A stretch of 64,000 bases of DNA from Candidatus Binatia bacterium (GTDB lineage Bacteria; Desulfobacterota; Binatia; UBA12015), in the NCBI GenBank assembly GCA_019749875.1, contig JAIEPK010000091.1:14398-78397 (forward strand), in the 5' to 3' direction. This document shows, piece by piece, positions 20,939 through 59,000 of the stretch. The notes under the pieces were generated by a model. The model made no database searches. It worked only from the letters and a program-made list of their open reading frames with translations, and was not told where the DNA came from. The position numbers and the translations under genes are program-made. Each line of letters begins with the position of its first letter. Position 1 is the first letter of the stretch.

Positions 20939-20966
20939 CGCCGCACGCTCGGCGGTCCGGCGGCGC

Positions 20967-26658: not shown

Positions 26659-26777
26659 ATCTACGCGAAAATCTTCGGGGACCGCTTGCGGACGCTCGAA
26701 CGTCAACAGTAAGCGTACCCGTCACAGCTTGTGCGGGGGTGGGCGAATTCTCAAGTCGCTGTCCCACCAGGACGGAG

Positions 26778-41452: not shown

Positions 41453-41487
41453 GGGGCCGTCCTTCGGGGCGGCCCTTGCTTTTTTGT
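41453..41487 (+). terminator. Rho-independent terminator after the major capsid gene
   Basis: GGGCCGTCC-TTCG-GGGCGGCCC hairpin followed by TTGCTTTTTTGT. Confidence 0.7.
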
Positions 41488-41594: not shown

Positions 41595-42038
41595 ATGCAG
41601 CAGGGGATGCTGCGCGTGCGCACGAGGCAAGACGTGCGCACCAGTCGGGGGGTGCTGTGCGGTGGCTTCGTCGTCGAGCTGCCGGAGGACGAGGCGAGAG
41701 ACCTCATCAGCCGGAAGCTCGCCAGCGAGGTCGCCGATCGGCGCCGCGGTGACGGCCGCGAGGCGCCCGCCGGGCGCCCGGAAGGCGTCAAGCAGTCGCC
41801 GGGGGCGCCACTGCGCGAGAGCCCACGCGACGCGTTCCTGCGCAACGGCGATGCGGCCGGCGACACGCAGGACCCGCTGGGCACCTTCGAGCCGCAGCCC
41901 GGATCGGCGGAAGACTTCGACGCGCCACGCCTCGGCTACCGTGGCGACTCGTTCGATGCGCCGGTCGAAAGTCGCGACGTCGCGACCGTGTCGCGCGAGC
42001 CCGTCAAGCGGCGCGGCGGAAGGAAGCGCTCGCGGTGA
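41595..42038 (+). CDS. Hypothetical phage protein (147 aa)
   Basis: GGGAGGTGGGGG RBS then ATG. No recognisable domain. Confidence 0.4.
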   Translation: MQQGMLRVRTRQDVRTSRGVLCGGFVVELPEDEARDLISRKLASEVADRRRGDGREAPAGRPEGVKQSPGAPLRESPRDAFLRNGDAAGDTQDPLGTFEPQPGSAEDFDAPRLGYRGDSFDAPVESRDVATVSREPVKRRGGRKRSR

Positions 42039-43012
42039 AGCTCCGACTGCTCTACCCGAAGTCGCTCTTTCGCATCGGCGCCGAGCTCCGCATGGCGCTC
42101 GAGCAGGGCGGCGTCGAGATCGCCAGCAAGGCAGACGTCGCCCTGCACCTCTCGACGACGTCGGACTTTGACCCCGTCCCCGATGCGCGGAACGTGCTGT
42201 GGGCGACGGACGTCACGACACCCGATCTGTCACCCGGGGCGGTCGCGCGGCTGCGCGTCGCGGACGCGATCCTGGCGACGGGCTCGATGCTGCGCGAGCT
42301 GCTGATGCCCGTCACCCAGAACTGCTGCGTGCTGAGTACGATCGTGCCGCTCGGCTTCGCGCCCAGCGCCTTCCGCCCGGTACTGCGCACCGATGCGCCG
42401 CGCACGCAGGCGTCGCCGCTTCGCGTGCTCTGGGTCGGCGACCTGGATCCGCGTGGTGACCTGGGCCTACTCGGTGCGCTCTGGGCCGAGCGCTTCGCCG
42501 ACCAGCCGTGGATCACGCTGACCGTCGCCGCGCCGGGCGTGAAGCCGGAGCACAAGGGCAACGTGCACTTCGCGCCAACGCCCCTCGCGCCACGATCGCG
42601 AGTCAGCCTGTTGCGCAGCCATCACGTCATGGTGTCGTTCGGCCACCTCGACCGTGCCGGGCTGACCGAGCTCGAGGCGTTGGCGACGGGCCTGCCGCTC
42701 GTCACGTCGGCATGGGCGCCCCCGCTCGACTACCCGCTGCACGACTGCGCGGAGGTGGTCGACTACGAGGTCGACTACGACCGCCACGGCAACGAGGTGG
42801 TGACGGCGAACCCCGGCGAGCTGGGCCGTCGCCTCGAGCGCGTCGTGCGCAACTACGACGACGCCGCGTGGCGTGCGTTCGATGCGGTGCGCATCCGCCC
42901 GTTCGCCGTCGAGCCCCGGATCCTCGACGCGTTCCGGTGGCCGGCGGTGATCGAGCAGCTGAAGCGTGCGCTGGCCGAGACGCTCAGCGGCGATGCGAGG
43001 GCCGCAGCGTGA
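42035..43012 (+). CDS. Glycosyltransferase-like protein (GT1/GT4-type C-terminal domain)
   Basis: GTGA-coupled GTG. ...VSFGHLDRAGLTELEALATGLPLVTS resembles the GT-B E-x7-E region. Confidence 0.5.
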   Translation: MKLRLLYPKSLFRIGAELRMALEQGGVEIASKADVALHLSTTSDFDPVPDARNVLWATDVTTPDLSPGAVARLRVADAILATGSMLRELLMPVTQNCCVLSTIVPLGFAPSAFRPVLRTDAPRTQASPLRVLWVGDLDPRGDLGLLGALWAERFADQPWITLTVAAPGVKPEHKGNVHFAPTPLAPRSRVSLLRSHHVMVSFGHLDRAGLTELEALATGLPLVTSAWAPPLDYPLHDCAEVVDYEVDYDRHGNEVVTANPGELGRRLERVVRNYDDAAWRAFDAVRIRPFAVEPRILDAFRWPAVIEQLKRALAETLSGDARAAA

Positions 43013-43311
43013 CCCGCGCACGAGACGTCATCGCGGAGCGGCTCCACCTCGATCGCGCCGCCGACTGGCGGCTGGGTGCGAGGGCGGTGCTCGTCTTCAC
43101 GCGCTCCGGGTCGGTCTATCAGGTCGACACGCAGGGCACCGTGCGCGGCGGATCGCTCGGCACCGAGAACGGCCGGCTCCAGGGGGCGGTCTACAGCACG
43201 GGTGGGCCGCTCAGGCCGGGCGAGATCGTGGTCGGGCTGTCCATGGAGATCGTCACGCACCGCAACGTCGTCACCACGACGCGCGTCGAGCGGGTGGAGG
43301 ACGCGGAATGA
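43009..43311 (+). CDS. Small phage structural-module protein (100 aa)
   Basis: GTGA-coupled. In-frame tail of a table ORF. Confidence 0.4.
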   Translation: MTRARDVIAERLHLDRAADWRLGARAVLVFTRSGSVYQVDTQGTVRGGSLGTENGRLQGAVYSTGGPLRPGEIVVGLSMEIVTHRNVVTTTRVERVEDAE

Positions 43312-43730
43312 AGGTCCCCGGAGCACCGGAGCTGCGGATTCGCCACGACGGGTCGACTCGCATCGTCAGCGGACCGGCGACATCAGTTTGCGTCGACGTT
43401 GGCGGAGAGCTTGCCCAGCCGATCGTTCGCTCGGTCGACTACTTCGTCGGCACGGCCGGCGACCGGCGCGGGCAGCCGTGTGTCCTCGTCGAGTGGGGCG
43501 GCTTCTCGTCGAACCTCGAGGTCGTCGCCGAGCTGGCCGAGCCGATCCCCGAGCACGAGCACGTGCAGCGCGTCTACGTGCTGTGCCTCGGGCTGTCGCG
43601 ACGGACGAAGGTCTGCGACGCCGACACAGGCGAGGAGATCCTCGTCACCGGCGTGCGCGTCAAGCTGGTCGCCGGTGAGCCGGCGCTCGCGTGGGTGGAC
43701 CCGTGGGTCGACCCGAAAGGAGAGCAATGA
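43308..43730 (+). CDS. Small phage structural-module protein (140 aa)
   Basis: ATGA-coupled ATG at 43308. Confidence 0.4.
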   Translation: MKVPGAPELRIRHDGSTRIVSGPATSVCVDVGGELAQPIVRSVDYFVGTAGDRRGQPCVLVEWGGFSSNLEVVAELAEPIPEHEHVQRVYVLCLGLSRRTKVCDADTGEEILVTGVRVKLVAGEPALAWVDPWVDPKGEQ

Positions 43731-44014
43731 AACCGTTCAGCATCTTGACGTCCATCACCGACCCCGTGCAGGGCTCCGGCAAGCTCGAGCTGACCAGCCG
43801 CGGGAAGATGCGGATCGAGTACGAGATCGACCTCGCCGGCGACATCGTCGACGCGGCGATGTCGGGTGACCCCAACGTCGGTAATCGTCTGCGCCAGAGC
43901 ATCCCGGCGGCGCTTAGCCAGCTCACGCAGAACCTGTTCGGTCAGCTCGCGCAGGGCCATCCGGCGCAGAAGGCCGGGCACCTCGCCGTCGTACCGAACC
44001 GCCTCGACACGTGA
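43727..44014 (+). CDS. Small phage protein (95 aa)
   Basis: ATGA-coupled ATG at 43727. Confidence 0.4.
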   Translation: MKPFSILTSITDPVQGSGKLELTSRGKMRIEYEIDLAGDIVDAAMSGDPNVGNRLRQSIPAALSQLTQNLFGQLAQGHPAQKAGHLAVVPNRLDT

Positions 44015-44163
44015 ACCCGCTTCGCTACGTCGGCTGGTACGTCGCGGCGCTGGTGTTCGCGGCCGGCGGCCGGATGCTGCGGCCTGGTGCTGATCCGAAG
44101 GACGAGGCGGTCGCGGCCATCGCGTTCGCGAACCGGCTGATGGGCTACGACGATGACGAGTGA
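44011..44163 (+). CDS. Small hydrophobic phage protein (50 aa)
   Basis: GTGA-coupled. VGWYVAALVFAAGG hydrophobic segment. Confidence 0.3.
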   Translation: MNPLRYVGWYVAALVFAAGGRMLRPGADPKDEAVAAIAFANRLMGYDDDE

Positions 44164-44395
44164 GCCGCGACAGTTCGCGCACACGCTCGGCGAGCTGTGC
44201 GCCAAGGGCGAGTTCCAGACGACTGGCCTCCTGACCAGTCAATGCGACGCCGCGGTCGAGCACGCCATCGAGCTTCGCTTCGTCTCCAACGCGGACCTGG
44301 ACGACGCCCTGCGGCGCCTCGTGCCCGAGGAACTGAGTGCGGACGTCTACTCGATCGACCTGCGCGTGCTGCTGCGGGTCAAGGCGCACCGATGA
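44153..44395 (+). CDS. Small phage protein (80 aa)
   Basis: Table ORF. Coupled start and stop. Confidence 0.4.
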   Translation: MTSEPRQFAHTLGELCAKGEFQTTGLLTSQCDAAVEHAIELRFVSNADLDDALRRLVPEELSADVYSIDLRVLLRVKAHR

Positions 44396-44631
44396 ATGGC
44401 CCCCGGTGGTGGACCGGCCCGCTCGCGCTGCTGGCGCTGTGCGGTGCGATGATCCTGATGGCGCTGCTCGCCGGCTGCGACACGCGCCAGGCCGATGCCG
44501 GCGACCCGCTGCCGATCGTCGCGACCAGCAACCGCGGCGAACTCTACCGCGTGCGCGACGGCAACGTGACGTGCTGGTTCACGATCAACTCCTACGGCAG
44601 CGCCATCTCGTGCCTGAGGGACGCGCCGTGA
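44392..44631 (+). CDS. Putative lipoprotein (79 aa)
   Basis: Signal plus lipobox ...MALLAGC. ATGA-coupled. Confidence 0.4.
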   Translation: MNGPRWWTGPLALLALCGAMILMALLAGCDTRQADAGDPLPIVATSNRGELYRVRDGNVTCWFTINSYGSAISCLRDAP

Positions 44632-44879
44632 GGGGCCTCGCGGAGGCCATCGACGCCTTCATCGACTTCGGCATGACGGCGATCATCCGCACCGCCGCGT
44701 TCCTCCTGGTGTGCGCGTTCTTCGGTGGCATCGTGCCGGGCCTCGCGGCTCTGCTGTCTGGCTGCGACGATCGCCCGTGCGTCCGCTCCCACACGGAACA
44801 GGCGTGGTTCAGCACCGGCGTCGCAGGCTTCTTCGCCGACATCCAGGTCTGCGACGAGTACGCCCCGGAGGCGCCGTGA
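44628..44879 (+). CDS. Small membrane protein (83 aa)
   Basis: GTGA-coupled. TAAFLLVCAFFGGIVPGLAALLSGC hydrophobic stretch. Confidence 0.35.
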   Translation: MRGLAEAIDAFIDFGMTAIIRTAAFLLVCAFFGGIVPGLAALLSGCDDRPCVRSHTEQAWFSTGVAGFFADIQVCDEYAPEAP

Positions 44880-45163
44880 CCGTCAAGCTGGTCATCTCGA
44901 AACCGGCCCCGTGCAAGGGCTGCGGCCACCGCCTGCACCGAGGCGAGTGCCGGCACAGGTTCCCGTGGTGGCTCCGCGTGCTGAAGGTTCTCCACCTGGT
45001 GCGGAGGAGTATCGCGATGCGGAGACCTCCCGCGCGCTCGCTGTGGTCGTTCTGGGCGCGGCCCGTGTGCGGTTGCTACCTGTGGGACTCGCGACGTGTC
45101 TACGACTGGCAACGGCAGCACGTCATCGCGCGCCGCGCCGCGCGGCGGAGGAGCCGTCGATGA
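44876..45163 (+). CDS. Small Cys-containing phage protein (95 aa)
   Basis: GTGA-coupled. CKGCGHRLHRGECRH. Confidence 0.35.
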   Translation: MTVKLVISKPAPCKGCGHRLHRGECRHRFPWWLRVLKVLHLVRRSIAMRRPPARSLWSFWARPVCGCYLWDSRRVYDWQRQHVIARRAARRRSRR

Positions 45164-45576
45164 CCTGGCCGCTCGCCTGTGTCGGCGTCGTGCTCGCGAT
45201 GCTCGCCCTGCGCTTCGGCGCCCTGCTGCGCGACGCGTGGCGCGGGCCGCGGTGGGACTTCACGCCGAGCGAGTTCTTCGAGGTCGTCTTCGCGCCGAAC
45301 GACTGGCGCTGGCACCACGACTACTCGATAGACGCCCTGCGGCGCGCGTTCGCGATCCCGCGCCACATGCTCGAGCCGAAGCCGCGGCTCGTCTACTCGT
45401 GGCACGAGATGCCGGTCGTCGACTGGCCGGAGCCCGAGCCTGAGCCACCGAGGAGCTCGCTGTTCGACACCTGGACGCCGCCCTTCTTCGGTGACCGTCT
45501 GCTGATCGAGTGGGAGCGGCGCGAGAAGAGCCTGCCGCGACTGCTGTCGTTCGTTCTCCCGATGGGGTGGCGGTGA
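45160..45576 (+). CDS. Hypothetical phage protein (138 aa) with an N-terminal TM segment
   Basis: ATGA-coupled ATG at 45160. Confidence 0.4.
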   Translation: MTWPLACVGVVLAMLALRFGALLRDAWRGPRWDFTPSEFFEVVFAPNDWRWHHDYSIDALRRAFAIPRHMLEPKPRLVYSWHEMPVVDWPEPEPEPPRSSLFDTWTPPFFGDRLLIEWERREKSLPRLLSFVLPMGWR

Positions 45577-46175
45577 GCATCGCGGTCGTTCTGCCGCTCG
45601 ACGCGTCGACGACGGTCGAGCAGTACCGCCGGTCGCTCAAGACCTTCCTCGCGCAGACGATGTGCCCACGAGCGCTGGTCGTCCTCGAGCGCGGCATCTC
45701 CGAGGACCTGGACGTCGAGGTGTCGACGAGCGCATGGCCGCTGCGCGGGCACCCCGGTGTGTTCTTCTTCCGCCCGGTCGCGAGGCCGGACGACATGACG
45801 GCGGTCTACCGCGCCGGCGCGCAGGTAAACGCCGAGGTGCTCACCTGCTGGGAGCCGGGCGAGGAGTTCCACCGCGACACGCTGGGACACCTCTGGGTCG
45901 AGCAGAACAACGGCTGCGCCTCCGTCGTCTACGCGGAGGACGAGCGAATCTGGGCCGCGTGCCACCGGCAGTGGTTCGAGCTCGGGCCCGTTTTCCCGAC
46001 GGCGCGCAAGATCCGCGCGGCGCTCCTCGTGCACGGCCACCTCATCAGGCGCATCGCCCCGGTTCGGGACTACACGCCGGACCCAGGTGCTACACCACGC
46101 GCTCGCGAACGCTCTCCATCCACTCGACGATCGCGTCCTCGATCGTCTCCCTCGTCGCCCTCGCGACTGGCATGA
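45573..46175 (+). CDS. Possible GT-A (family 2-like) glycosyltransferase fragment or hypothetical; 3' extent uncertain
   Basis: VSIAVVLPLDASTTVEQYRRSLKTFLAQT resembles the GT2 N-terminus. The last ~85 nt overlap a convergent minus-strand gene. Confidence 0.35.
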   Translation: MSIAVVLPLDASTTVEQYRRSLKTFLAQTMCPRALVVLERGISEDLDVEVSTSAWPLRGHPGVFFFRPVARPDDMTAVYRAGAQVNAEVLTCWEPGEEFHRDTLGHLWVEQNNGCASVVYAEDERIWAACHRQWFELGPVFPTARKIRAALLVHGHLIRRIAPVRDYTPDPGATPRARERSPSTRRSRPRSSPSSPSRLA

Positions 46176-46524
46176 GAGTCGTCCAGCGCTCGGAGAATCC
46201 GACCGAGACCCAGTCGTTCTCTTCGAGGACCACGCTGTTCGACCCGTCCTCGGTCGTCTCGTTGCGGATCGTCAGCTTCGGGCTGCTCCGGGCGCGGTGC
46301 GGCTCGAACGTGACGACGATCGTTGCCTGTTCGTGATCCGTCTCGCAGGAGACCTCCGCGCCGCTGCCACGGAGCTGGTCCGCAATGCGATCAGCCGCTG
46401 ACCGCGCATCGACGTAGGCACCATGTCGGTACTCGTCGTCGTGTCGCCGTTCGAGTTCGTCGCGAACCGCGCGCCTCATCGCCTCTCTCTTCAGGGCTGC
46501 CTTCAGGTCGTCGAGCTTGCTCAT
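46090..46524 (-). CDS. Hypothetical protein (144 aa), the only clearly minus-strand gene inside the prophage
   Basis: AAGGGAGAAG RBS 9 nt before ATG at 46524. Good codon bias. Confidence 0.55.
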   Translation of the reverse strand: MSKLDDLKAALKREAMRRAVRDELERRHDDEYRHGAYVDARSAADRIADQLRGSGAEVSCETDHEQATIVVTFEPHRARSSPKLTIRNETTEDGSNSVVLEENDWVSVGFSERWTTLMPVARATRETIEDAIVEWMESVRERVV

Positions 46525-46688: not shown

Positions 46689-46760
46689 GGACGAGGTAGC
46701 GCAGCCTGGGAGCGCACCGGCGCCGAGCCGGAGGTCGCGGGTTCAAATCCCGCCCTCGTC
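46689..46760 (+). tRNA. tRNA-like gene with canonical acceptor, D- and T-arms but an atypical anticodon arm (possibly Arg-CCG)
   Basis: Acceptor GACGAGG/CCTCGTC, D-arm GCGC-AGCCTGGGA-GCGC, T-arm GCGGG-TTCAAAT-CCCGC. Anticodon region CCGG-CGCCGAG-CCGG gives either a 4-bp stem with G at position 33 or a 5-bp stem with a 5-nt loop. Confidence 0.45.
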
Positions 46761-46774
46761 CGTTCTCTGACGGT

Positions 46775-47302
46775 GTGCCGACCCGACGCCCATCGTTCAC
46801 GGCGGGCCGATCGCGGCACGCGAGCTTCACGCCGACGGGCGTCCGCCACCTGCGCTTCGCCTTCGAGCGCAGCGCGCATGGGCGCTTCGACTACGAGACC
46901 GACCCGACCTTCACGGTCCCCGGAGGGAACCTCGACTTGCTGAGCGGCGCGACACTCTCTGAGGTGGGCTTCGGTGCGCTCGTCTACTGCGGCACCGCCT
47001 ACTGCCGGCCGTCCGACTCGGAGGACGAGGTGCAGTTTGCGCTCCCCGCGGGCACCGTCAAGCGCCTCTACGTCCGCTGCTATCCGGCGCCCGGCTTCGG
47101 AGAGAGCTTCGCGTGCACGTTCCGCGTCGACAAGGCCGACACCCTGATCGCCGCGACCATCAGCGGCAATGGCCGCAACGCCGCATCGAACGTGAGCAAC
47201 ACCGTCACGACGACGGCCGGCCAGGCGGGCAGCGTCAAGATCACGCCCAGCTCCGGCGCGGCGTGGTCCTACCTGACCTGGACCCTCGAGATCGACCGAT
47301 GA
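46775..47302 (+). CDS. Hypothetical protein (up to 175 aa)
   Basis: Table ORF just after the tRNA-like gene. Start uncertain. Confidence 0.4.
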   Translation: MPTRRPSFTAGRSRHASFTPTGVRHLRFAFERSAHGRFDYETDPTFTVPGGNLDLLSGATLSEVGFGALVYCGTAYCRPSDSEDEVQFALPAGTVKRLYVRCYPAPGFGESFACTFRVDKADTLIAATISGNGRNAASNVSNTVTTTAGQAGSVKITPSSGAAWSYLTWTLEIDR

Positions 47303-47432
47303 TGGGGCCGGACGCCGACGTCGGGTCGGCACGCGGCTGTAGACCGCGCGTCTTCGGACACGGGGGGTTCGACTCCCTCCCGCCCCACTCTTTCCCGCCC
47401 CCCGATCCCAACGAAACCCTCGGGGGTGTCAG

Positions 47433-48290
47433 GTGAAGAAGGTCAAGCGTCTCCTCGCGCGGTCGGTGATCGCGCTCCTGCTCGCGATCGGCGTCCTGCA
47501 GGTCAGCATCCAGCCCGCGCTCGCGCAGAAGGCCGGCCCCGGCGAGCCGTTCCGCTTCCGCGGCGGCCTCGCGTACTTCGGCCCGACCGACTCGGACACG
47601 CTCCGATCGCGCGTCACCGATGCGACCGGCTCCGGTGGGGGTCTGGTGTTCGCGACCGGCCCGACCATCTCGGGGGGCACGTTCTCCAACCCCACCATGA
47701 CCGGCACCGTCACCGTGCCGGATGGCTTCCTCGCGTCCATCGCGAAGTTCGCCTCGGGCATCCTGTCTGGCAACGGCTCGAAGCTCGCGACCGTCACCGG
47801 CGCGCAGACCGCCGGCAAGCAGCTCACCTACGACGCATCGGGAAACGTCATCGTCTCGTCCTACGACGTCGGCGCCGCGGGCACCGGTAAGCAGATCCTG
47901 TCGTTCTCGAGCCAAACCGTCCTTCCCTTCGCGGACTCCGGCTCGACGAACTACCTCGGCCTCGGCGGCAAGGTCGGCGCTTCGGGAGATGAGGTCTGGG
48001 TCCGCGCACCGCTCAGCGGCGGCACCGCGTCGAAGCTCCGCTGTTTCGCGACCGGCTCGACCGGTGGCTCGGGCGCGGTCGTTACGCTCGGGTCCGGTGC
48101 GTGCGGAAGCCCGCTCACCTACCCCGGCAGCGGCCAGGTCACGGTCACCGTCACCTCGACAACGGCTGTCTCCGACACCTCGCAAACCCACTCCGTGACG
48201 GATGGACATTGCGTCGCCCTGAAGGTTGTGTGGACCGACACGACCACCGACCAGGGCCTCAACTGCACCCTCGAGTACGCTCTGAGCTGA
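47433..48290 (+). CDS. Secreted Gly/Ser/Thr-rich protein (Sec signal peptide)
   Basis: GTG with upstream GGGGGTG. Signal MKKVKRLLARSVIALLLAIGVLQVSIQPALAQ. Repetitive G/S/T-rich beta-like sequence. Confidence 0.55.
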   Translation: MKKVKRLLARSVIALLLAIGVLQVSIQPALAQKAGPGEPFRFRGGLAYFGPTDSDTLRSRVTDATGSGGGLVFATGPTISGGTFSNPTMTGTVTVPDGFLASIAKFASGILSGNGSKLATVTGAQTAGKQLTYDASGNVIVSSYDVGAAGTGKQILSFSSQTVLPFADSGSTNYLGLGGKVGASGDEVWVRAPLSGGTASKLRCFATGSTGGSGAVVTLGSGACGSPLTYPGSGQVTVTVTSTTAVSDTSQTHSVTDGHCVALKVVWTDTTTDQGLNCTLEYALS

Positions 48291-48298
48291 GGAGCACC

Positions 48299-51235
48299 AT
48301 GAACCATCGTACCACCCCACGGGCCCTCGCCATCCTGGTTGGCCTGACGGCACTCCTGTCTCTCTCGCCGGAGGCGCACGCGCAGCGCAGTAGCGGCGTC
48401 GCGCGCTTCCGGGGCGGCATGATCTCGTTCGCTTGCGCCGCCGGCAAGCTGCTGGGCGTCAACTCGAGCGGCTATGCCGCATGCCGCCAAGCTGGCAACG
48501 CGCTGGTCGCTGAGGACATCGGGCTCCACTGCGACCAGAGCGCCAATGACACGTCGACGATTCGGTCGGCGATCGAGGGCGGAACCGCCGCGGGCAAGAC
48601 GCTCCGGTTGCCGTCCGGGTGCAAGAGCCTACTGGGCACGCCGGGCGCGGGCGACTCGGTAGCCGACCTGATGACCGACACCGTCATCGAGTGCGAGGAC
48701 CACTCCGCCGGCTTCGTGCTGGCGACCAAGACCTGCTCGTCAGGTAGCGACACGCCGGGCGCAGCATGCACGGCGGACAACCAGTGTCGGAATGGGACGT
48801 GCCAGGGCGACGTGACCGGCGACGCGTTCGCTCCCAGCTCGGGCAGCACGTACACCGTCTTCGGCGCGGCGTCCGGCGCGCAGCGCGTCGCCGTCAAGGG
48901 CTGCTCGATCTGGGCGAACGGCGCCAATGGCATTCCCGCCGCGGTCGGCGGCAACGACAAGCGGTGGGGCTACTGCAACGGCGCGGGCTCGAGCACCGCC
49001 GGACAGGGCTGCTTCTCGGGGTGTAACGTCGCGTCGGGCGTCCTGTACGGCCTGCCCTGCACCAGCGATGCCTCGTGCGGAGCTGGTGCGTGCGTGGACC
49101 TCGCTGGGAGCTGCAAGACGAACGGCGGCACGTGCCTGGGGGCGATTCCGTACGCGACGCCCTGGGGCGCGTCGGGTCGCGGCAAGATCCACCCCATCGA
49201 CTTCTCGGCCGGCTCCAGCGACGCCATCCGGAGCGTCAAGATCTGGGACCACCGCCGAGGAGACTTCTCCGTCAAGTCGGGGAACTCCGGCTCGATCGCC
49301 GACGTCACGAACAATCTCGCGTCGGCCATGGCGACACCGCCGATCGCCAACTTCCCCCACGGGCCCAAGCTCCAGGCGAGCGTCAACTACGGGATCTACG
49401 GCACTTACGGAACCAGCATCGAGCGGTTCGACGTCAGCGGGTGGGATGCGGCGGTCTACGCAGCCGGCCGGAACACGGTCCTGGGGGGCTCGGGCTCCGG
49501 GTATGGCGACCCCGCCGAGTCGACGTGGAACGGCACCGCCGGCATCGAGATCGCCGGCAGCTACGTCCGCTCGTACGGCTTCGTGGGCGGGCCAGGCTTG
49601 CTCAACTGCGTCCGTCCAAAGTTCGGACTGGGATACAACTTCCTCGTCTCGTCGCCCTACTGCGACTCGCACATCGGGGCGAAGTTCATCGCTCAGGATG
49701 CGGGCAACCAGTACGCCGACCTCCGGGGTGCGTGGGGCAGCATCGCGAGCGTGATGAGCCTCGGCGACCAGCGAGGGCGTTGCCCAACCGGAACCCCGCG
49801 CGCCAACAAGCTCTGCATCTTCGGAGCCGGCACCGACGCGACGATCGGGTGCCCCTCGTCGGCGTGCGCGGCGCACAACGACTTCCCGGCCACGGGCGTC
49901 ACCCACCTGGAGGTCGGTGGCACAACCCTTCTCCACACCGATCAGGCGAACGCCGCGCTGATCCGGGCGACCGACAGCAAGCGCTGCGCTGATGGCACCG
50001 GAACCATCGGCGGCCCCTGCACCGCGGACGCCGACTGCGGGACGGGCGGCAAGTGCCGCTTCCTCCGGTACTCCGACGTGTCGATCAAGGCCGAGCTGTA
50101 CGTCGGGGGGACGACGGGCGTCACCGGAGTGGACCTCTCGACGTCGAGCGTCGGCCAGGCGATCGACTCGCCGCTCGTGGGTGGAGGGCCGTCGATCGAG
50201 GTGTGGGACCTCGACCTGAGCTTCGGCAAGCTCGCGGTCGGCGTCAAGTTCCCGACCGCCACTCGCCGGTGCGTCGGTGGGGCGAGCGCCGGCAACACCT
50301 GCTCGGCGCACACCGACTGCACGGGCGGCGGCAGCTGCGAGCTGCCCGTCAAGAACTTCGTGATCCGCGGCAATGCGGGCGCCGTCACCACGCCGCTCCA
50401 GGGCTGGGACTGGGGCTTCGGCGACTACTCCGGCCTGTCCGGGCTGCTCCCGAGCGACGACCAGTGCAAGCCGATCAACTACGTGGCGGGCGAGGCGCTC
50501 ACCCGTGGCCAGGTCGTGTCGGCCTCGTCCTCGACGGACAACGCCGTCGTCAAGACCACCACGGGTAATCCTGAGCGTGCTCTCGGCGTCGCGCTCGGCG
50601 ACACGATCAGCGGCGACACCGTCAAGGTCTGCTCGCTGGGCGTCGCCGCGTGCATCGCGGACGAGGCGATCAGCAACGGCGCGGCGCTCACGCCGTCGAC
50701 CTCGACCTCCGGCCGGGTCAAGACGTGGTCGACGGGGGACGTCATCGTCGGTCGAGCCTTGGACAGTCCCGGCTCCGCGGGAACGGTCTTCGACTGCGCG
50801 ATCGGTCCCGTTCCGCCGACGCAGGGATCGACGTCGGTGTTCCCGAAGTTCGACTCGGACCGCCTAGCCACGAGCCAGGGCTTCACGTCGTCGTGTGCGA
50901 CGACGCAATTGCTCAACGCGAAGACCTACACCGCGACCAGCGGGAAGAAGATCCGGCTCGAATCGTACGTTCCCGTCAATCAGACGACGAGCGCCACCCG
51001 CACCGCAACGATCTACCTGAAGCGCGGCGGCTCGGGCTGCGACTCGGGCTCGCCGACTATCCTCGCGCAGGCCGACACCGCGCTCACGTCGGCGCAGAAC
51101 AAGATCAACGCCTCCCTGTCGTACACCGACACGGGACAGAGCGGCTCCGTCACGTACCGCGTGTGCGCGTGCTCGAACGGCGCGGGAACGCAGGCCGATG
51201 CCGGCTCGGTGCTGAACATCACCGAGACGAACTGA
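48299..51235 (+). CDS. Large secreted Cys-rich repeat protein (978 aa) with four C-x2-D-x2-C-x-x-G-x-C modules
   Basis: GAGGAG RBS then ATG at 48299. Signal MNHRTTPRALAILVGLTALLSLSPEAHA. Modules ACTADNQCRNGTCQG, PCTSDASCGAGACVD, PCTADADCGTGGKCRF, TCSAHTDCTGGGSCEL. Table ORF starts upstream at 48101. Confidence 0.6.
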   Translation: MNHRTTPRALAILVGLTALLSLSPEAHAQRSSGVARFRGGMISFACAAGKLLGVNSSGYAACRQAGNALVAEDIGLHCDQSANDTSTIRSAIEGGTAAGKTLRLPSGCKSLLGTPGAGDSVADLMTDTVIECEDHSAGFVLATKTCSSGSDTPGAACTADNQCRNGTCQGDVTGDAFAPSSGSTYTVFGAASGAQRVAVKGCSIWANGANGIPAAVGGNDKRWGYCNGAGSSTAGQGCFSGCNVASGVLYGLPCTSDASCGAGACVDLAGSCKTNGGTCLGAIPYATPWGASGRGKIHPIDFSAGSSDAIRSVKIWDHRRGDFSVKSGNSGSIADVTNNLASAMATPPIANFPHGPKLQASVNYGIYGTYGTSIERFDVSGWDAAVYAAGRNTVLGGSGSGYGDPAESTWNGTAGIEIAGSYVRSYGFVGGPGLLNCVRPKFGLGYNFLVSSPYCDSHIGAKFIAQDAGNQYADLRGAWGSIASVMSLGDQRGRCPTGTPRANKLCIFGAGTDATIGCPSSACAAHNDFPATGVTHLEVGGTTLLHTDQANAALIRATDSKRCADGTGTIGGPCTADADCGTGGKCRFLRYSDVSIKAELYVGGTTGVTGVDLSTSSVGQAIDSPLVGGGPSIEVWDLDLSFGKLAVGVKFPTATRRCVGGASAGNTCSAHTDCTGGGSCELPVKNFVIRGNAGAVTTPLQGWDWGFGDYSGLSGLLPSDDQCKPINYVAGEALTRGQVVSASSSTDNAVVKTTTGNPERALGVALGDTISGDTVKVCSLGVAACIADEAISNGAALTPSTSTSGRVKTWSTGDVIVGRALDSPGSAGTVFDCAIGPVPPTQGSTSVFPKFDSDRLATSQGFTSSCATTQLLNAKTYTATSGKKIRLESYVPVNQTTSATRTATIYLKRGGSGCDSGSPTILAQADTALTSAQNKINASLSYTDTGQSGSVTYRVCACSNGAGTQADAGSVLNITETN

Positions 51236-51310
51236 CCTCGCCCCCGGTCCCATGTCCCCGCGACGGCCTCGGCCGTCAAGCAGTGCCGGCACCCCGGCAC
51301 GGAGACGAGA

Positions 51311-51754
51311 ATGGGACTCAGGAAGTTCGTGCTGGTGCTTCTGGCACTGGCGGTCGCGCTGTACGTGGGGACCGGCGATGCGCTCGCCGTCAAGGCCGAT
51401 CTCAAGACCGGCACCTCGCTGAGCTCAGCCACGAGCACGGCCGTGGTCCCGGCGAACAGCCGGCGCATCAAGCTCACGATCCTCAACCTCGCCGCGACCA
51501 ACCCGATGACGTGCACCACGCTCGGTACTGCGACGGCCACGAACGGCTTCGTCATTCCGGCGTCCGGCTCGAAGGTGTTCGACACCAAGGCCGAGGCGAA
51601 GCGTGCATTCAAGTGCTTCAGCACGTCGGGTACCACCGCCGGCTACGACGAGGTGGTCGACGACGACTTCGCGCTGACGGCGCCGACGCCGACGCCGATC
51701 GCCACCCCGACCCCGACGCCGATCGCCACCCCGACCCCGACCCCGACTCCGTAA
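51311..51754 (+). CDS. Small secreted protein ending in a (TPTPIA)n Thr-Pro repeat
   Basis: Signal MGLRKFVLVLLALAVALYVGTGDALA. C-terminus TAPTPTPIATPTPTPIATPTPTPTP followed by stop. Confidence 0.5.
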   Translation: MGLRKFVLVLLALAVALYVGTGDALAVKADLKTGTSLSSATSTAVVPANSRRIKLTILNLAATNPMTCTTLGTATATNGFVIPASGSKVFDTKAEAKRAFKCFSTSGTTAGYDEVVDDDFALTAPTPTPIATPTPTPIATPTPTPTP

Positions 51755-51808: not shown

Positions 51809-52771
51809 ATGGACACGACCTTCGAGCGATACACCGCGGGCGAGACTGCGGAATACGGCGGCGTCCTGCGCTACCCTCCCGCTGCGGGGGATGACGAGGG
51901 TGACCCGATCCCAAAGAGCGACATCGCGAAGCTCGAGGTGACGCTCACCAACGCCGCCGACGGGCAGATCGTGAACGGCAGAGAGGCGCAGAGCCTGCTC
52001 GACGCGAACGACGGACAGGTGAATGACACCTCGGGCGGGTTCCGCTGGAAGATCCAGCGCGCCGACACGGACCACGTCGGCGAAGGCTTCGACTTCGAGG
52101 AGCACGACGCCGACTTCGTGCTCGAAACGGTCTCCGGCCACCGACTGACGTGGCGGCACCGGATGCATTGCAGTCGCGTCGCGCCGCTCTGCGCGTGGAC
52201 CGACGTGCTCCTGTCGAAAGCCGACCTAGATCCGGGGGAGCGGCTCTGGGTCGAGCTGCTGATCGGTGCCGCGACGCGCACGGCTGAGGAGATCGCCCGG
52301 CGATCGCTGCGTGGCGGCTACACCGAGGCGCATCCCGTCACCGAGGTCCACTCCGTGCGCCGCGGCCAGCGCAGCATTCGCGTGCGGCACTGGCCGGTGA
52401 CCAAGATCGTCTCCGTCAAGGACTCGCTCACCGGAGACTTCGAGCACGCGGCGCCGCTCTCCGTGACGTCTTACGCCATGTCGACCCCCGAGACGCTCCG
52501 CCTGCGAGACGACGTGACCGGGTTCCAGGGCGGGCCCGGCACGGTCGAGCTGAAGCTCGCCGGCGGCTTTGCGCGCAGCGCAGGCGCCGTCCCCGAGCAC
52601 ATCCGCGTCGCGACCATCCGCCAGGTCATCCACTGGCTCGACACCTCTGGCTCGCCGGCTGCGACGGGCCGCTCGGTGGGCAGCATGTCGTCGAGCTACG
52701 CAGCGCCGAGCGCGTTGCTGCCCGAGGTGGCGGCCGCGTACCGGACCCTGCGCAGCCGGATCCCGCTCTGA
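51809..52771 (+). CDS. Hypothetical phage protein (320 aa), possibly head-tail connector/adaptor by position
   Basis: First gene of the tail-proximal block. No recognisable motif. Confidence 0.4.
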   Translation: MDTTFERYTAGETAEYGGVLRYPPAAGDDEGDPIPKSDIAKLEVTLTNAADGQIVNGREAQSLLDANDGQVNDTSGGFRWKIQRADTDHVGEGFDFEEHDADFVLETVSGHRLTWRHRMHCSRVAPLCAWTDVLLSKADLDPGERLWVELLIGAATRTAEEIARRSLRGGYTEAHPVTEVHSVRRGQRSIRVRHWPVTKIVSVKDSLTGDFEHAAPLSVTSYAMSTPETLRLRDDVTGFQGGPGTVELKLAGGFARSAGAVPEHIRVATIRQVIHWLDTSGSPAATGRSVGSMSSSYAAPSALLPEVAAAYRTLRSRIPL

Positions 52772-54067: not shown

Positions 54068-55063
54068 ATGGGAGTCAACAGGACTCGGAAGACGCTGTGC
54101 ACCGCCAAGATCGAGGGCGGCGGCTACGGCGTCGACGCGACGCCGACCGCCAGCGCGAACACGATGCTGCTGTTCGACGACGGCAACATCGTCCAGCGCG
54201 ACGTCAAGACGATCGAGAAGAAGCCGCTCCGTGTCTCGCTGACCGGGCAGAAGGACGGCATCGGGCGCTCGATCGCGAACGTCAATCTCAGCACCGTCCT
54301 CATGTCGCGCGGCGACGACACGGCCGCGCCGTGGCTCGACCCACTGCTCCGCATGTCGGGCCTCGCCGTTGCGACCGGCACCGAGGACACCTCGAAGAAG
54401 TTCTGGCGCTACACGCCGCGCAGCTCCGGATTCGAGTCGGCCACGATCTACGCCTACATGGACGGCTTCCTCTGGAAGGTGCCGGGCTGCTACGGCACGT
54501 TCACCCTCGACATGCAGGCCGGGCAGATGCCCGATCTCAAGTTCGAGGCCGCAGGCCTGTACGTCAAGCCGACGAACCAGGCGTTCCCGTCGGCCACGTA
54601 CCCGACGGACACGAAGCTCCAGGTCGAGAGCGAGCAGCTCGTCATCGGCCCGGACGGCGTCGGCTACTCGCCCGTGGTCCGGAGCATCAACCTCGTCTGG
54701 GGCATGGCGCGCGCGGAGCGCGGCGACTGCAACTCGCCGAAGGGCTTCAAGGGCTTCGACCCCAACGACCGCATGCCGAAGCTCACGCTGAAGGTCGAGG
54801 TCGAGGACACGCTCTCGAACAAGGACTTCTTCGCCTACCTCGACGACCAGCAGGCGCTCGGCGACGCCGCGATGGACGACGTCGAGTGGCAGCACGGCGA
54901 CGACGTGCAGTCGGCGATCGTCTTCAAGTGCAACGCGCCACAGCTCCTGTCGCACCCGTTCGAGGAGCAGGACGGCCTGCGCCTCTACACCCTGACCTAC
55001 AAGCTCCGGAACAACACCGACGACGGCGAGTTCTCGATGACGTTCCGCGAGGAGGAGTCCTGA
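54068..55063 (+). CDS. Putative major tail (tube) protein
   Basis: 331 aa. Located immediately before the G/GT chaperone pair and the tape measure gene. Confidence 0.55.
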   Translation: MGVNRTRKTLCTAKIEGGGYGVDATPTASANTMLLFDDGNIVQRDVKTIEKKPLRVSLTGQKDGIGRSIANVNLSTVLMSRGDDTAAPWLDPLLRMSGLAVATGTEDTSKKFWRYTPRSSGFESATIYAYMDGFLWKVPGCYGTFTLDMQAGQMPDLKFEAAGLYVKPTNQAFPSATYPTDTKLQVESEQLVIGPDGVGYSPVVRSINLVWGMARAERGDCNSPKGFKGFDPNDRMPKLTLKVEVEDTLSNKDFFAYLDDQQALGDAAMDDVEWQHGDDVQSAIVFKCNAPQLLSHPFEEQDGLRLYTLTYKLRNNTDDGEFSMTFREEES

Positions 55064-55632: not shown

Positions 55633-56048
55633 AGCTGTTTCGGCCGGGCGCGCCGAAGAGCTGCGAGGAGTGCTCCGACCTCCAGGAGCACTCCGACCAG
55701 CCGTGCTGGTTCCAAGACGGCTGCCCCTTCGACGACCTGGCCAACAGCCCGAGGCTCGGAGCAATCCTTCGCTTCGCGACCCGCACCATCGTCCACCAGG
55801 AGCTCCCCACCAGGGACGGCGGCAAGCAGCACCACTACGAGGTCCGACCCGACCTCTTCCAGCTCCGCTGCAAGACGAAGCAGGTCCCGCAGGCCCAGTG
55901 GGACGAGGCGCTCGACTACTGCGAGCTCGTCGCACGCGCCGCCACCGAGGCCCCCGACGTAGCGGCCGCGCCGAAGCACCGACGGCGCGGCGAACTGAAG
56001 AGGGTGACGCTTGGCCGCAGGCGACGAGAAGATCCGCGTAACGATTGA
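55153..56048 (+). CDS. Tail assembly chaperone G-T fusion made by -1 ribosomal frameshift at 55599-55605
   Basis: Frame relationship (G in frame 1, T extension in frame 0) and a canonical slippery site. Conserved siphovirus arrangement. Confidence 0.45.
55599..55605 (+). promoter_or_regulatory. Slippery heptamer G_GGA_AAC for a programmed -1 frameshift producing the G-T fusion chaperone
   Basis: XXXYYYZ heptamer is in the zero frame of the G gene. The -1 frame stays open to 56048 and encodes a Cys-rich extension (…CEECSDLQEHSDQPCWFQDGCPF…). Confidence 0.5.
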
Positions 56049-59000
56049 GGTCGACGACTCGGGTCTCCGGGTCTTCGACCAAGCGGGCAAGCTCGTCAAG
56101 CAGTTCGCGACGGAGGCCGGCAAGGCCGGGACCTCCGTCGACGAGCTGGCCGATGCGTTCACCGCTGGTCTCGTCGATGGTCTCGCGAAGGCCTCCGCCG
56201 AGACGGCCAAGCTCGAGGGCCGGCTGAAGGAGGAGCAGCGTCTCCTCGAGGCCGAGATCGAGCTCCGCAAACAGGTCAACGAGGGCGTGCTCTCGGAGAT
56301 CGACGCGCGTGCCCGGCTCGCGAGGGAGCAGGCGAAGGGCAACGAGGGCGTCGCCGACCTGCTCGAGCGCAACTCGCGCCTGAAGTCCGAGCTCGAGGGG
56401 CTCACCAAGGCCGGCAACGACAACACCGGGATGTGGCAGCGCCTGAAGTCCGGGGCGGAGTCCGTCAAGGGCGTGTTCGAGGGCGTCTTCTACGTCGTCG
56501 AGGGCGGCAAGGCCGCTTTCGAGGTTCTGCGCTCCGCGGGGGAGGTTGCATTCGATGGCCTCAACACGGCGGCGCGCACCTTTCGCGAGTCGACCATCAA
56601 CGGCATTGGCACGGAGTACCTCTCCGAGCTGACGGCGCTGGCCGAGGCCTCCGGCCGCGAGATGGACGACGTCCTCGACCTGGTGCGCGACGTCCGCAAG
56701 CGCGTCGGAGAGGCATCGACCGAGCTCGCGCGCGGCAACCTGACGAACACCTTCGTCGACGCGTTCAACCGTCTTGGTGCCGGCCCCGAGATGCTCAAGA
56801 AGTTCGCGACCGACACGGAGGCGGCGGTCGACTTCGTCATCTCGAAGATCGCACAGGCGAAGGACGACCCTCGGATTCAGTTCACGGTCCAGGAGCTGAC
56901 CAACTCGGGCTTCGAGAAGTTCGGCCCGATCGTCGCGGCACTCGGGGAGAAGGGCGTCGCGGAAGCGCGCGAGCAGGTCCGTGCACTCGGGCTTTCGATC
57001 TCGGATGAGACGGCAGCTCTGGCGCAGCGAACGCAGGCCAGCCTTAGTCTGATCGGGCAGGCCTTCGACGGCGTGATCCGTCAGTTGACGGCCGGAGCGG
57101 CGCCCGCACTAGAGGGCGCGTCGTCTCGCCTCGTGGCATTCGCCACCGACCTCGGAATCGCCGACGGACGGCTGCAAGACATCGGCGCCACCATCGGCGC
57201 CGGCGTCGCATCCTCGCTCGACTCGCTGATCGCGCTGGTCGAGCGACTCAGCACCGCCGCGAGCGAGGGGCGCTTCGGCGAGCAGCTCCTGGCGGAGCTG
57301 CAGAAGATCGGTCCTGCGGTCGAGCCGTACGCGCGCGAGGCCGGCGAGAAGATCGGCGAGTTCCTCGCCGAAGGCTTCCGTCGCGGCATCGCCGGCATGT
57401 TCTCGATCGACTGGTCGAAGCTCGCGGACCTGTCGGGCTTCGTCGATCCGATGGAGGCCTATGCCAAGGGCATCTCCGAGCGGGTCTCTGGCGCGTTCGA
57501 CGTCGACATCGCGCCGCTGACGTCGTCGGTAAACGCGGCTTCGAGCGCCATCACGCAGTTCAACACCGCCACCGCATCGGCCGCGGCGCAGAACGTCGAG
57601 GCGAACAACGCCTTCTCGTCGACGCGTGAGGTGCTCGGCCAGATGGCCGACGGCTCGCTGATCCTCGGCAAGAGCCTCATCCAGTCCGGCGAGGCGGCGA
57701 CGAAGGCGGGAGGCGGCTACCGAACGACGGGTGGTGCGGCCGGCCAGGCGGCGCAGGACCTCGCCAACTTCAACAAGGAGCTCGCGAAGCAGAGCGCCTC
57801 GCTCTCGGCCACGCAGGCGATCTACCAGCAGGCCGCTCGAGGCACGATCTCGCTCGCGCAGGCGGATCAGCAAGCCGCGGTCGCGAGTGCGACACTCGAA
57901 AAGGGCATCACCGACGAGAAGGCCAAGCTCGCCGCGCTCACGCTCGAGCGCCAGAAGGCCGCAGTCGAGACCGCGAAGGCCGCTGCTGCCGCTGCGGATC
58001 AGGTGCAGGCCGAACAGGCGAAGCTCGACGTCATGCGCCAGGTCGTTGCGGCAGGCGGCGACACCGAGGACGTCGCGCGCGCGGTGGCGCTCGCCGACAT
58101 CGAGCGCGCTGCCGCGGCGCAGCTCGCGAAGGGCGCGAACGAGGAAGACGTCGCTCTCCTCAAGCAGAAGCAGATCGCGCTCCTCGACACCGTCAAGGCG
58201 CAGCAGGAGCTGAACCAGGTCGCCACCGGCAAAGAGGAGCTGACGAAGCTCCGCGAGCAGCTCGCGATCACGCAGCAGCGCGCCGCCGGCACGCTAAGCG
58301 CGGTCGAGGCGGAGCGCCGGCTCGCGATCGCCGCCGCGGGCACGACCGAGGAGCTGCGCAAGCAGGCCGGCGAGAAGTTCGACCTCGTCAAGCAGATCGA
58401 GGACACCGAGAAGGGCTACGTCCATCTCGGCGACACCATCAAGGGCGCGTTCACGGACGTGTTCGATGCGCTCGTCGCCGGCACGCTCGACCTACAGGAC
58501 TCGCTGAAGAGCCTCGGGCTCGCCATCGGCAAGGACTTCTTCAATGCGATGCTCGAGTCGAAGTTCAAGGACTTCGACCCGACCGTCAAGGCCAATTTTC
58601 TTGAGCTGGGAGACTACGGCAAGGGCATCTTCGGGTCCCTGTTCGACGGCGTCGCGCGCATCTTCGGCGGCGGCGGTGGCGGTGGCTTCGTCGGGCCGCT
58701 GCTCGAGAACGGGACGATCGGCACCGGCGGCGGCGTGCCGGGACTCCTGGGCTTCGGCGGCGGCGGCGGTCTCGGATTGCTTGCGAACCTCGCGCTCAAC
58801 AGCGGCGGGTTCTTCGCCAACAGCAATCCGGGTGTGAGTCTCGGTCTGAGCGGCCTGAGTCTCGCGAATAGCGGACTCAGCCTCGCGACGGGCAGCGGCA
58901 TCATCGGCTCGCTCTTCGGCACCGGTGCTGCGTCTTCGACGATCGGGTCGCTGATTGGCGACACGGGCTCGGGCCTCGTCACCTCGCTCTTCGGCGACAC

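Follow-up and report, generated by a model that had tools for sequence, protein, structure and literature searches.

Tailspikes and depolymerases such as those of HK620, Sf6 and P22, phi29 gp12, or the Klebsiella K1/K2 enzymes are built on a long right-handed parallel beta-helix with small C-terminal beta domains, and they are encoded in the phage structural operon with distal domains that are swapped and stalks that vary. They lack a signal peptide, are not rich in cysteine, fold in the cytoplasm, and carry an N-terminal domain that binds the particle. Tailed-phage virions are more generally thought to be built wholly in the cytoplasm, and genes between capsid and neck are assumed to encode cytoplasmic parts of the particle. 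Here we describe a block of four genes (ORF175, ORF285, ORF978, and ORF147) in exactly this slot of a siphovirus-type prophage of a Candidatus Binatia bacterium, located in a stretch of 64,000 nucleotides that we call the window (contig JAIEPK010000091.1 of assembly GCA_019749875.1, positions 14,398 to 78,397). Three of the four proteins carry conserved Sec signal peptides, and the largest, ORF978, has the genomic setting of tailspikes and appears to share their architecture. It differs from them in its apparently cleavable Sec signal, in ~30 invariant cysteines, and in a conserved N-terminal motif of just ~15 residues, beside which we saw no recognizable N-terminal anchor domain in this protein. 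We tentatively favor the view that the block is a periplasm-folded, glycan-targeting module of the late operon that would act on the host envelope.

The second point of reference is the Phage_cement_2 family (DUF2190, PF09956), to which residues ~716-840 of ORF978 are homologous at the profile level and with whose fold, as seen in 8qsy, they superpose. Members of this family are stand-alone cytoplasmic proteins of ~120-140 aa with 0-3 cysteines and no signal peptide, whereas the domain of ORF978 lacks the N-terminal arm and is embedded between an exported beta-helix of 650 aa and a jelly roll. Unlike capsid cement, domains of the ORF978 type are also found in exported proteins encoded on chromosomes.

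Exported proteins of comparable design are known from bacteria themselves. WceF of Pantoea stewartii is an exported, trimeric, tailspike-like hydrolase of exopolysaccharide (EPS) with a beta-helix, an intertwined neck, and a jelly-roll sandwich, which acts on the cell's own exopolysaccharide and has probably been exchanged with phages (PMC7949094). It is the best functional analogue of the chromosomal ORF978 homologs at three loci described below (L009, L010, and L018). Its likeness to ORF978 itself is one of architecture: WceF has a Tat signal and a P22-like N-terminal head domain, is not Cys-rich, and is encoded on the chromosome in an EPS cluster, whereas ORF978 is phage-encoded in a late operon. 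The MAT fibers of Bdellovibrio are exported phage-fiber-like trimers with a Sec signal, a conserved module following the signal, and swappable C-terminal tips (PMC10769870). One such tip, Bd1399 (8okh), is among the fold matches of ORF978, though a weak one (target TM-score, TMt, 0.35). However, MATs have a conserved, beta-rich N-terminal domain of ~130 aa compared with a motif of ~15-20 aa here, are chromosomally encoded and displayed on the surface of the predator, and do not contain a beta-helix + cement unit.

Phages also encode exported envelope proteins such as Lom and Bor of lambda or Llp of T5, which are small outer-membrane proteins or lipoproteins, occur sporadically, and often have promoters of their own. 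The role that we propose for the exported block resembles that of Llp, by which progeny are shielded from receptors in debris. Unlike these proteins, the block comprises large tailspike-like proteins, belongs to the conserved core of its lineage, and is embedded in the late operon. Our literature searches turned up neither a report of Sec export for decoration or tailspike proteins of tailed phages nor any work on phages of Binatia. All the parts are known, i.e., the tailspike beta-helix, Phage_cement_2, the jelly roll, and the Sec signal; what we did not find described or annotated is their combination, an exported Cys-rich beta-helix joined to a capsid-cement domain that occupies the head-neck slot of a phage lineage and also occurs on host chromosomes.

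Export signals and domain architecture

The block is bounded upstream by the gene of the HK97-fold major capsid protein (MCP; 40100-41380, + strand; PF05065 E=1.4e-32; phrog_10) and downstream by that of the head-tail adaptor (51809-52771, +; phrog_442 E=1e-11), which has syntenic homologs in all related loci and is followed on the + strand by a Neck1/gp10-like gene. A first-pass annotation, made by a model from the sequence alone, had placed the block between capsid and tail modules in just this way and had called Sec signal peptides on the genes starting at 47433, 48299, and 51311, which it considered anomalous at this position. Our results bear out all three points. With a slash marking the predicted cleavage site, the signal peptides read MKKVKRLLARSVIALLLAIGVLQVSIQPALA/QK for ORF285 (gene 47433-48290, +; signal aa 1-31), MNHRTTPRALAILVGLTALLSLSPEAHA/QR for ORF978 (gene 48299-51235, +; signal aa 1-28, window 48299-48382, ending in ...SPEAHA/QR), and MGLRKFVLVLLALAVALYVGTGDALA/VK for ORF147 (gene 51311-51754, +; signal aa 1-26). 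Each combines a positively charged n-region with a hydrophobic core (best 12-residue Kyte-Doolittle mean 2.7-3.3) and a small-x-A site, and none of the three N-termini contains a twin-arginine motif or a lipobox. These calls come from our own heuristic and from conservation across homologs: nearly all homologs of the three families show these features as well, e.g., a small-x-A site after the hydrophobic core in 14/15 ORF978 homologs. By the same heuristic, none of the canonical virion proteins of the window that we scored (portal, MCP, adaptor, Neck1, tail tube, and tape measure protein, TMP) is signal-peptide-like.

Sec export of ORF285, ORF978, and ORF147 is therefore strongly indicated at the level of sequence. 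Three unrelated families have kept the signal-peptide grammar including the peptidase site; the invariant cysteines are consistent with structural disulfides, which we predict for ORF978; none of 12 genes checked has an internal start preceded by a Shine-Dalgarno sequence that would give a cytoplasmic isoform; and the wider beta-helix family is overwhelmingly signal-bearing. The cell-surface or extracytoplasmic role first suggested for the three proteins is plausible, and the tailspike- and cement-like proteins of the block probably fold outside the cytoplasm, which would be very unusual for tailed-phage proteins from that slot.

The gene of ORF978 (978 aa) has a GGAG ribosome-binding site 7 nt upstream of its ATG and, like the other three genes of the block, is backed by third-position GC. 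The protein contains 40 cysteines, of which ~30 are invariant across 16 family members (alignment A1). The four Cys modules that had been reported for it are present as two exact copies of C-x2-D-x2-C-x2-G-x-C (aa 157 and 254) and two loose variants (aa 574 and 668), compared with 0.02 expected by chance (2000 shuffles). The suggested link to myxobacterial Cys-rich repeats is weak: TIGR04201 (Myxococcus Cys-rich repeat) scores 15.9 bits against a cutoff of 25 on a single stretch that covers one module (aa 572-587), no Pfam Cys-repeat family matches ORF978, and the host is a Ca. Binatia bacterium, not a myxobacterium.

An AlphaFold2 (AF2) model of ORF978 (pLDDT 73, pTM 0.63) is all-beta with several low-confidence loops and consists of a disordered region (1-65), a beta-helical region (~67-715), a compact domain (724-835), and a beta-sandwich (853-977). 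We delimit the corresponding domains as a Cys-rich right-handed beta-helix (aa ~67-715, window 48497-50443; from AF2, Foldseek, and a motif count), a Phage_cement_2 domain (DUF2190, beta-tulip-like; aa ~716-840, window 50444-50818), and a C-terminal jelly-roll tip (aa ~841-978, window 50819-51235), all on the + strand.

The modeled beta-helix appears to be of the tailspike/polysaccharide-lyase type. Its Foldseek matches include phi29 gp12 as well as the HK620 and Sf6 tailspikes, alginate lyase 8jaz, and K1 lyase 7w1c (the latter four at E=5e-5 to 1e-3 with low TM-scores of 0.24-0.27 for the query and 0.36-0.45 for the target), and among BFVD models "pectate lyase superfamily" proteins match ORF978 with E-values down to 1e-8. 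Pfam Beta_helix was not detected in ORF978, and we found no sequence-level match to any solved tailspike. A DHRRGD motif (aa 317-322, window 49247-49264; D317, R319, G321, and D322 being noted) is invariant in the ORF978 family, recurs in the consensus of a distant chromosomal subgroup (A7), and is retained as DHRxG in a more divergent set (A6), which makes it a candidate catalytic or metal/glycan-binding site.

The middle domain matches phrog_673 (E=1e-15) and reaches 20.3 bits with Pfam Phage_cement_2, below the cutoff of 24. Three close homologs have weak precomputed matches to this family, and a distant relative (P0049) exceeds the cutoff with 30.9 bits. When compared with the PDB, a profile of the domain (A5) finds the capsid stabilization protein of HFTV1 (8qsy, E=7e-12), to which Foldseek also aligns it (TMt 0.75, rmsd 3.0 A), along with the capsid-binding base of phi29 gp8.5 (TMt 0.68) and many viral DUF2190 proteins of ~125 aa (TMt up to 0.84). 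The alignment with the HFTV1 protein begins at residue 25 of the latter, and the N-terminal arm, which is the typical capsid contact of decoration proteins (PMC7602432), has no counterpart in ORF978.

At the C-terminus, the jelly-roll tip resembles the C-terminal (TNF-like) domain of Pgp3 and C1q-type folds, and in three family members (P0011, P0013, and P0015) it has been swapped for an unrelated domain (19-25% identity vs 30-52% in others). Some relatives have collagen repeats or ~400 aa of tail-fiber-like repeats inserted between the N-terminal motif and the beta-helix; a match of P0002, found when searching longer family members, to a collagen-repeat "tail fiber" of PHROGs was discarded as compositional only. 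We also noted a marginal match (E=0.04) of the jelly-roll profile (aa ~851-962, window 50849-51184) to the extracellular domain of vertebrate beta-sarcoglycan with a shared "...Y(R/K)LC(A/M)CAD.." motif, which at this E-value we regard as probably due to chance. This was the sole match in searches of PDB sequences by phmmer and profiles with ORF978, the ORF285 family, and ORF147, which gave nothing significant.

In ORF285, the signal peptide is followed by a conserved motif, an extended linker modeled with low confidence, and, at the C-terminus, a jelly-roll beta-sandwich (aa ~153-284; AF2 pLDDT 70-89 compared with 62 overall). All 15 members of its family carry the signal peptide and the post-signal motif A-x-x-A-T-x-P-I/V-x-x-x-N-G, the only region in which this family aligns with that of ORF978 (profile comparison, N-terminal 40 columns). 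A pairwise BLAST hint that ORF285 and ORF147 might resemble the C-terminus of ORF978 was not backed by profile comparison. Fold matches of the ORF285 jelly roll are weak, with the trimeric cement protein of KHP40/KHP30 as the best and carbohydrate-binding modules and TNF-like domains further down. ORF175 (46775-47302, +; GC at third positions, GC3, 0.91) has no signal peptide and is a stand-alone copy of this jelly roll (hhalign probability 94.6%, E=7e-8, 102 columns) with homologs in five related loci (L001, L003, L005, L007, and L013).

ORF147 joins its signal peptide to a ~95-aa domain with two cysteines, both invariant in its homologs, and to a (TP)n tail (aa 124-147; C-terminus APTPTPIATPTPTPIATPTPTPTP) in which the (TPTPIA)-like repeats described earlier are readily recognized. 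The signal peptide and the TP tail are retained in its homologs of L001 (tblastn, 51%) and L007, which are instead positioned directly after the MCP gene. The ORF147 profile matches neither the cement domain nor ORF175, and Pfam, PHROGs, and NCBIfam gave no matches for ORF175, ORF285, or ORF147. The (TP)n tail had been said to echo the linker of another secreted protein of the prophage, a 214-aa protein upstream of the terminase (29589-30233, +) with a signal peptide, a APTPVPTAIATPSPVPTAI linker, and a Cys-containing domain; the two do have a PT-rich composition in common, but the likeness goes no further than a compositional linker. No homology was found between this protein and the analogous 192-aa secreted protein in L003.

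Relatives in phages and on chromosomes

Homologs of ORF978 with 42-54% identity fall into 15 clusters, which we traced to contigs; all elements that we compared are uncultured. In eight loci (L001, L003, L005, L006, L007, L008, L011, and L013), the homolog lies between MCP and adaptor, is preceded by ORF175-like and ORF285-like genes, and has ORF147-like genes nearby; we counted a relative as positive if it had the full set of four genes or, at minimum, the pair ORF285/ORF978. The first-pass annotation had proposed a comparison with related prophages lacking the cassette, yet all eight relatives examined keep at least this pair. Their other proteins have diverged considerably from those of the window (identities of 22-30% for MCP, 23-33% for the adaptor, 24-44% for the tail tube, and 33-39% for the portal), whereas ORF978 is 42-52% identical over >900 residues and is the best-conserved protein of these elements. 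The cement domain itself is 40-71% identical in elements whose MCPs share 22-30% and therefore does not co-diverge with the capsid surface. This conservation and synteny, seen in nine or more divergent loci, mark the block ORF175-ORF285-ORF978-ORF147 as a conserved module of the late operon that is specific to this lineage, and not as inserted cargo. ORF978 remained unmatched by tblastn in 50,697 GenBank phages and the identity of the MCP to those of cultured phages does not exceed ~24%, which leaves no proteomically characterized comparator.

A profile search of 1.84 billion representatives uncovered a much wider family of 1052 relatives of ORF978, with 62 at E<=1e-30 and ~130 related clusters at E<=1e-10. 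One class comprises ~100 large beta-helix proteins, of which 73/100 are signal-peptide-like and each of which contains 24-50 cysteines. The other consists of stand-alone proteins of ~113-142 aa with the cement domain only, no signal peptide, and 0-3 cysteines, several of which pass the Pfam cutoff of Phage_cement_2. The cement domain directly follows the beta-helix in 59 of 120 large relatives, after which the protein either ends (type a) or continues into a C-terminal domain of ~140 aa (type b, including ORF978).

Type-a genes with a readable context are chromosomal and adjoin genes of glycan metabolism. In a second Binatia metagenome-assembled genome (L009) and in L010, a CoA-transferase is encoded upstream and a secreted DUF4838/GH67N protein downstream, with no phage genes within 10 kb of the type-a gene. 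At L018, a GFO/IDH/MocA oxidoreductase and a family 2 glycosyltransferase (GT2) are encoded directly upstream, while a GH63-like gene adjoins the type-a gene at L020. Read from these contexts, the beta-helix + cement unit apparently works without a capsid in its chromosomal homologs. A second phage lineage with the same habit as the elements described here is represented by an IMG/VR contig (L025), on which portal and head genes are followed by a 1400-aa, signal-peptide-bearing relative of ORF978. Two further IMG/VR contigs of 208 and 140 kb (L014/L015) encode distant relatives with 30% identity (genes 9767-13417, 14372-14914, and 16911-20234) that are neighbored by GT-like genes and by further large proteins with signal peptides; within 10 kb of them, no counterpart of a structural gene of the window is present, and these contigs could possibly be jumbo phages with exported protein sets of their own.

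Surroundings of the block in the prophage

Positions 1 to ~17.7 kb of the window, which has a uniform GC content of ~69%, are ordinary chromosome with genes for a Glu/Gln-tRNA synthetase, an MbnB-type enzyme for ribosomally synthesized and post-translationally modified peptides (RiPPs), a polysaccharide flippase, and an L,D-transpeptidase. The siphovirus-type prophage begins at ~18.9 kb and is integrated in the chromosome of a Ca. Binatia bacterium. Its ORF978 has the same sequence as [quoted passage not shown]. Upstream of the MCP gene, its late genes on the + strand encode TerL (33147-34583), a portal-MuF fusion (34973-38086), and a protease/scaffold-like protein of 609 aa (38186-40015), and the tail tube (54068-55063) and TMP (56011-63621) are encoded beyond the adaptor. 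A terminator-like hairpin 3' of the MCP gene (41453-41476) is the sole strong hairpin of our scan.

Between MCP and the conserved module lies a variable accessory segment (42035-46524, within about 41.6-46.5 kb) that in the window contains a GT4-like gene (42035-43012), small ORFs, and an ORF at 45510-46175. Two of the small ORFs (79 and 68 aa; 44392-44631 and 44673-44879, +) have lipoprotein signal peptides with lipoboxes (LLAGC/D and LLSGC/D) and might encode o-spanin-like or exclusion lipoproteins. The lone minus-strand gene that had been noted upstream of the block (46090-46524, −) is supported by third-position GC. In L001 and L007, this slot is empty and the module follows MCP almost directly, while in L003 and L005 it is occupied by 4-8 GT genes accompanied by genes for a methyltransferase and an AAA+ regulator; the GT-like gene of the window is 32% identical to the GT4 of L005. 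The truly variable part among relatives is the stretch upstream of ORF175 (about 42.0-46.8 kb), not the exported block. The GT clusters of L003 (1490-7340) and L005 (1691-8538) include GT2, GT4, GT17, and Gly_transf_sug genes together with the AAA+ regulator, which is of the sigma-54 type, and related elements have an additional GT4-like gene directly before the tail tube gene (in L005 at 16243-17289). These clusters suggest phage-directed glycan synthesis or glycosylation of virions or proteins. Virion glycosylation is known from mycobacteriophages in which GT genes lie near those of the capsid.

The tRNA-like gene reported ahead of the block is real and encodes tRNA-Arg(CCG) (46689-46762, +) according to both ARAGORN and Rfam (RF00005, 54.7 bits). 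The genes listed for this region are real as well, though the list had overlooked a probable class II tRNA-Tyr(GTA) with a long variable arm (47305-47388, +) and ORF175, which lies between both tRNAs. This second tRNA is called by ARAGORN and by the cloverleaf of its minimum-free-energy fold and is sub-threshold in Rfam, where its best match is the tRNA-Sec model with 32.9 bits vs 47. The tRNAs are absent in L001, L003, L005, L006, and L007, which keep the exported module; being specific to the window, they are no marker of a cassette. ARAGORN also calls a tRNA-Gly with the unusual anticodon ACC within the prophage (26733-26805, +), so that it may have up to three tRNAs that were not found in the examined region of its relatives.

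Several other genes are worth recording. The portal-MuF fusion contains a Mu-F-like head morphogenesis domain, occurs as the same fusion in L001 and L007, and in its C-terminal ~300 residues has a sub-threshold match to Intein_splicing (PF14890, 25.4 vs 35.8 bits). A secreted CAP/SCP protein (PF00188, E=7.6e-15; 30272-31126, +) is encoded upstream of the terminase, and together with this protein and the one at 29589 the secretome of the prophage is unusually large. The gene at 20676-21464 (+) encodes an N-terminal domain of dATP/dGTP diphosphohydrolase type (PF18909, 29.5 bits, cutoff 27). Domains of this kind are tied to manipulation of the nucleotide pool by phages or to modified-base (Z-genome-type) pathways. 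In the host flank, an MbnB/TglH/ChrH-type RiPP maturase (4623-5480, +; E=7e-106) is preceded by a small exported ORF (4275-4574), a possible RiPP cluster that is unrelated to the exported phage block.

Possible functions of the block

In our preferred reading, which we hold as a tentative working view, the four proteins would be produced together with the virion proteins, and ORF285, ORF978, and ORF147 would be sent by Sec to the periplasm to fold there with disulfides. As trimers assembled in the periplasm, the exported proteins would bind a polysaccharide of the host envelope (EPS, capsule, or O-antigen-like) or cleave it, and trimming of this glycan on the producing cell and on debris could promote progeny release and/or block re-adsorption and superinfection. 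ORF978 would be the core of this system and ORF285 a shorter, fiber-like partner that shares its N-terminal module and ends in a jelly-roll tip, complemented by ORF175 as a cytoplasmic paralog of the ORF285 tip and by ORF147 as a small exported protein with its (TP)n tail. The reading starts from what we observed directly, i.e., gene content, conservation, synteny, signal-peptide features, invariant cysteines, domain homologies, and chromosomal homologs beside glycan genes. We favor it because the beta-helix + cement unit occurs in proteins encoded on chromosomes, where there is no capsid for it to bind, because the cement domain does not co-diverge with MCP, because the same slot holds clusters of glycosyltransferases (GT2, GT4, and GT17, all non-virion) in relatives, and because exported bacterial analogues exist in WceF and the MAT fibers. 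The matches of the beta-helix to tailspikes and polysaccharide lyases and the invariant DHRRGD motif lend it further support.

A number of points weigh against this reading. Genes between MCP and head-tail adaptor normally encode virion parts, the middle domain of ORF978 is by profile comparison a true homolog of capsid-bound stabilization proteins (HFTV1, E=7e-12), and neither Pfam nor PHROGs detected a stand-alone cement gene in the window. The collagen or fiber stalks of some relatives suit a protein anchored to a particle or surface and not a free enzyme, and ORF285 and ORF978 have their N-terminal module in common, as co-docking fibers do. The AF2 models are moderate (pLDDT 73 for ORF978 and 62 for ORF285) with low query TM-scores for the beta-helix (0.24-0.27), the promoter scan used an E. 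coli sigma-70 consensus that is little informative for Binatia, and catalysis, glycan substrate, trimer state, export, and disulfides as well as timing and biological role are all read from sequence.

Many of the same observations would fit the main alternative, which we consider less likely, namely that ORF978 and ORF285 are head or neck appendages that are exported by Sec, depend on the oxidizing periplasm for their disulfides, trimerize there, and dock onto the cytoplasmically built particles only once lysis has mixed the compartments, either on the capsid through Phage_cement_2 or on the neck or another partner through their common post-signal motif. The slot between MCP and adaptor is conserved in all relatives, and the position is head-proximal also in the second lineage (L025). 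Besides its homology to the HFTV1 protein, the cement domain matches the capsid-binding base of phi29 gp8.5 in fold, Pfam and PHROGs revealed no further decoration gene in the window, and the best, though weak, match of the ORF175/ORF285 jelly roll is a trimeric cement protein; stalks and swapped tips in some homologs would likewise suit an appendage. Decoration proteins can bind mature capsids after assembly, as Dec of phage L does even in vitro (PMC7602432). However, no example of a tailed phage that attaches Sec-exported components after lysis turned up in the literature that we searched, and the cement domain persists in chromosomal homologs without a capsid and at 40-71% identity where MCPs share 22-30%. 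The arm that would make the capsid contact lacks a counterpart in ORF978, and, judging from the polarity of the stalk insertions, anchoring would be via the N-terminus and not via the cement domain.

The first-pass annotation had instead seen a moron or lysogenic-conversion cassette, inserted next to a tRNA and expressed in the lysogen from its own promoter to provide the host with cell-surface factors. Lysogenic-conversion genes do typically encode exported proteins, and the element is indeed integrated as a prophage. GT clusters, lipoproteins, and tRNAs make the head-neck region of this lineage a hot spot of accessory genes, and chromosomal homologs imply that exchange between host and phage has occurred. 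We nevertheless find this explanation improbable. The module is present in every related element examined despite backbone identities of only 22-44%, and ORF978 is their most conserved protein and not a sporadic one. The tRNAs are missing from relatives that retain the module. There is no compositional shift, with GC of 0.686-0.697 over 46-52 kb compared with 0.67-0.71 elsewhere in the prophage and a GC3 of 0.88-0.91 like that of neighboring genes. The junctions of the block are tight with GGAG-type ribosome-binding sites, it is coupled to the downstream adaptor gene, and the scan with the E. coli consensus, which says little about Binatia, found no promoter- or terminator-like site within 46.5-51.8 kb that would speak for promoters of its own. 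Nor can the proteins be assumed to be non-structural cargo, because their predicted folds (tailspike beta-helix, capsid cement, and jelly roll) are those of virion proteins.

Still less probable is that the proteins are ordinary cytoplasmic head fibers or decoration proteins whose hydrophobic N-termini serve as trimerization or anchoring helices and whose cysteines bind metal or oxidize after lysis: gene position and virion-type folds would agree with this, AF2 gives a plain helix for the ORF285 N-terminus, and each Cys module plus one preceding cysteine could make a four-Cys site, but the full signal grammar (positive n-region, 10-14-residue hydrophobic core, and small-x-A) recurs in three unrelated families and in 73/100 distant beta-helix relatives, an anchoring helix has no reason to retain a peptidase site, chromosomal homologs with the same N-terminus sit among secreted glycan enzymes, and stand-alone cement proteins never have such an N-terminus.

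The proteins described here belong to a previously undescribed and fairly large family that combines a signal peptide, a Cys-rich beta-helix, and Phage_cement_2 and is common to bacterial chromosomes and phages, with a capsid-decoration domain reused inside exported cellular proteins. If our glycan-targeting reading is true, expression of a periplasmic system for glycan trimming alongside virion genes may be routine among phages, with a receptor-destroying or release function akin to that of viral neuraminidase. If the proteins are instead appendages of the particle, this would amount to an extracytoplasmic step of virion maturation that has not been described for any tailed bacteriophage. Either outcome would change how genes of the "structural module" are annotated in metagenomic phages.

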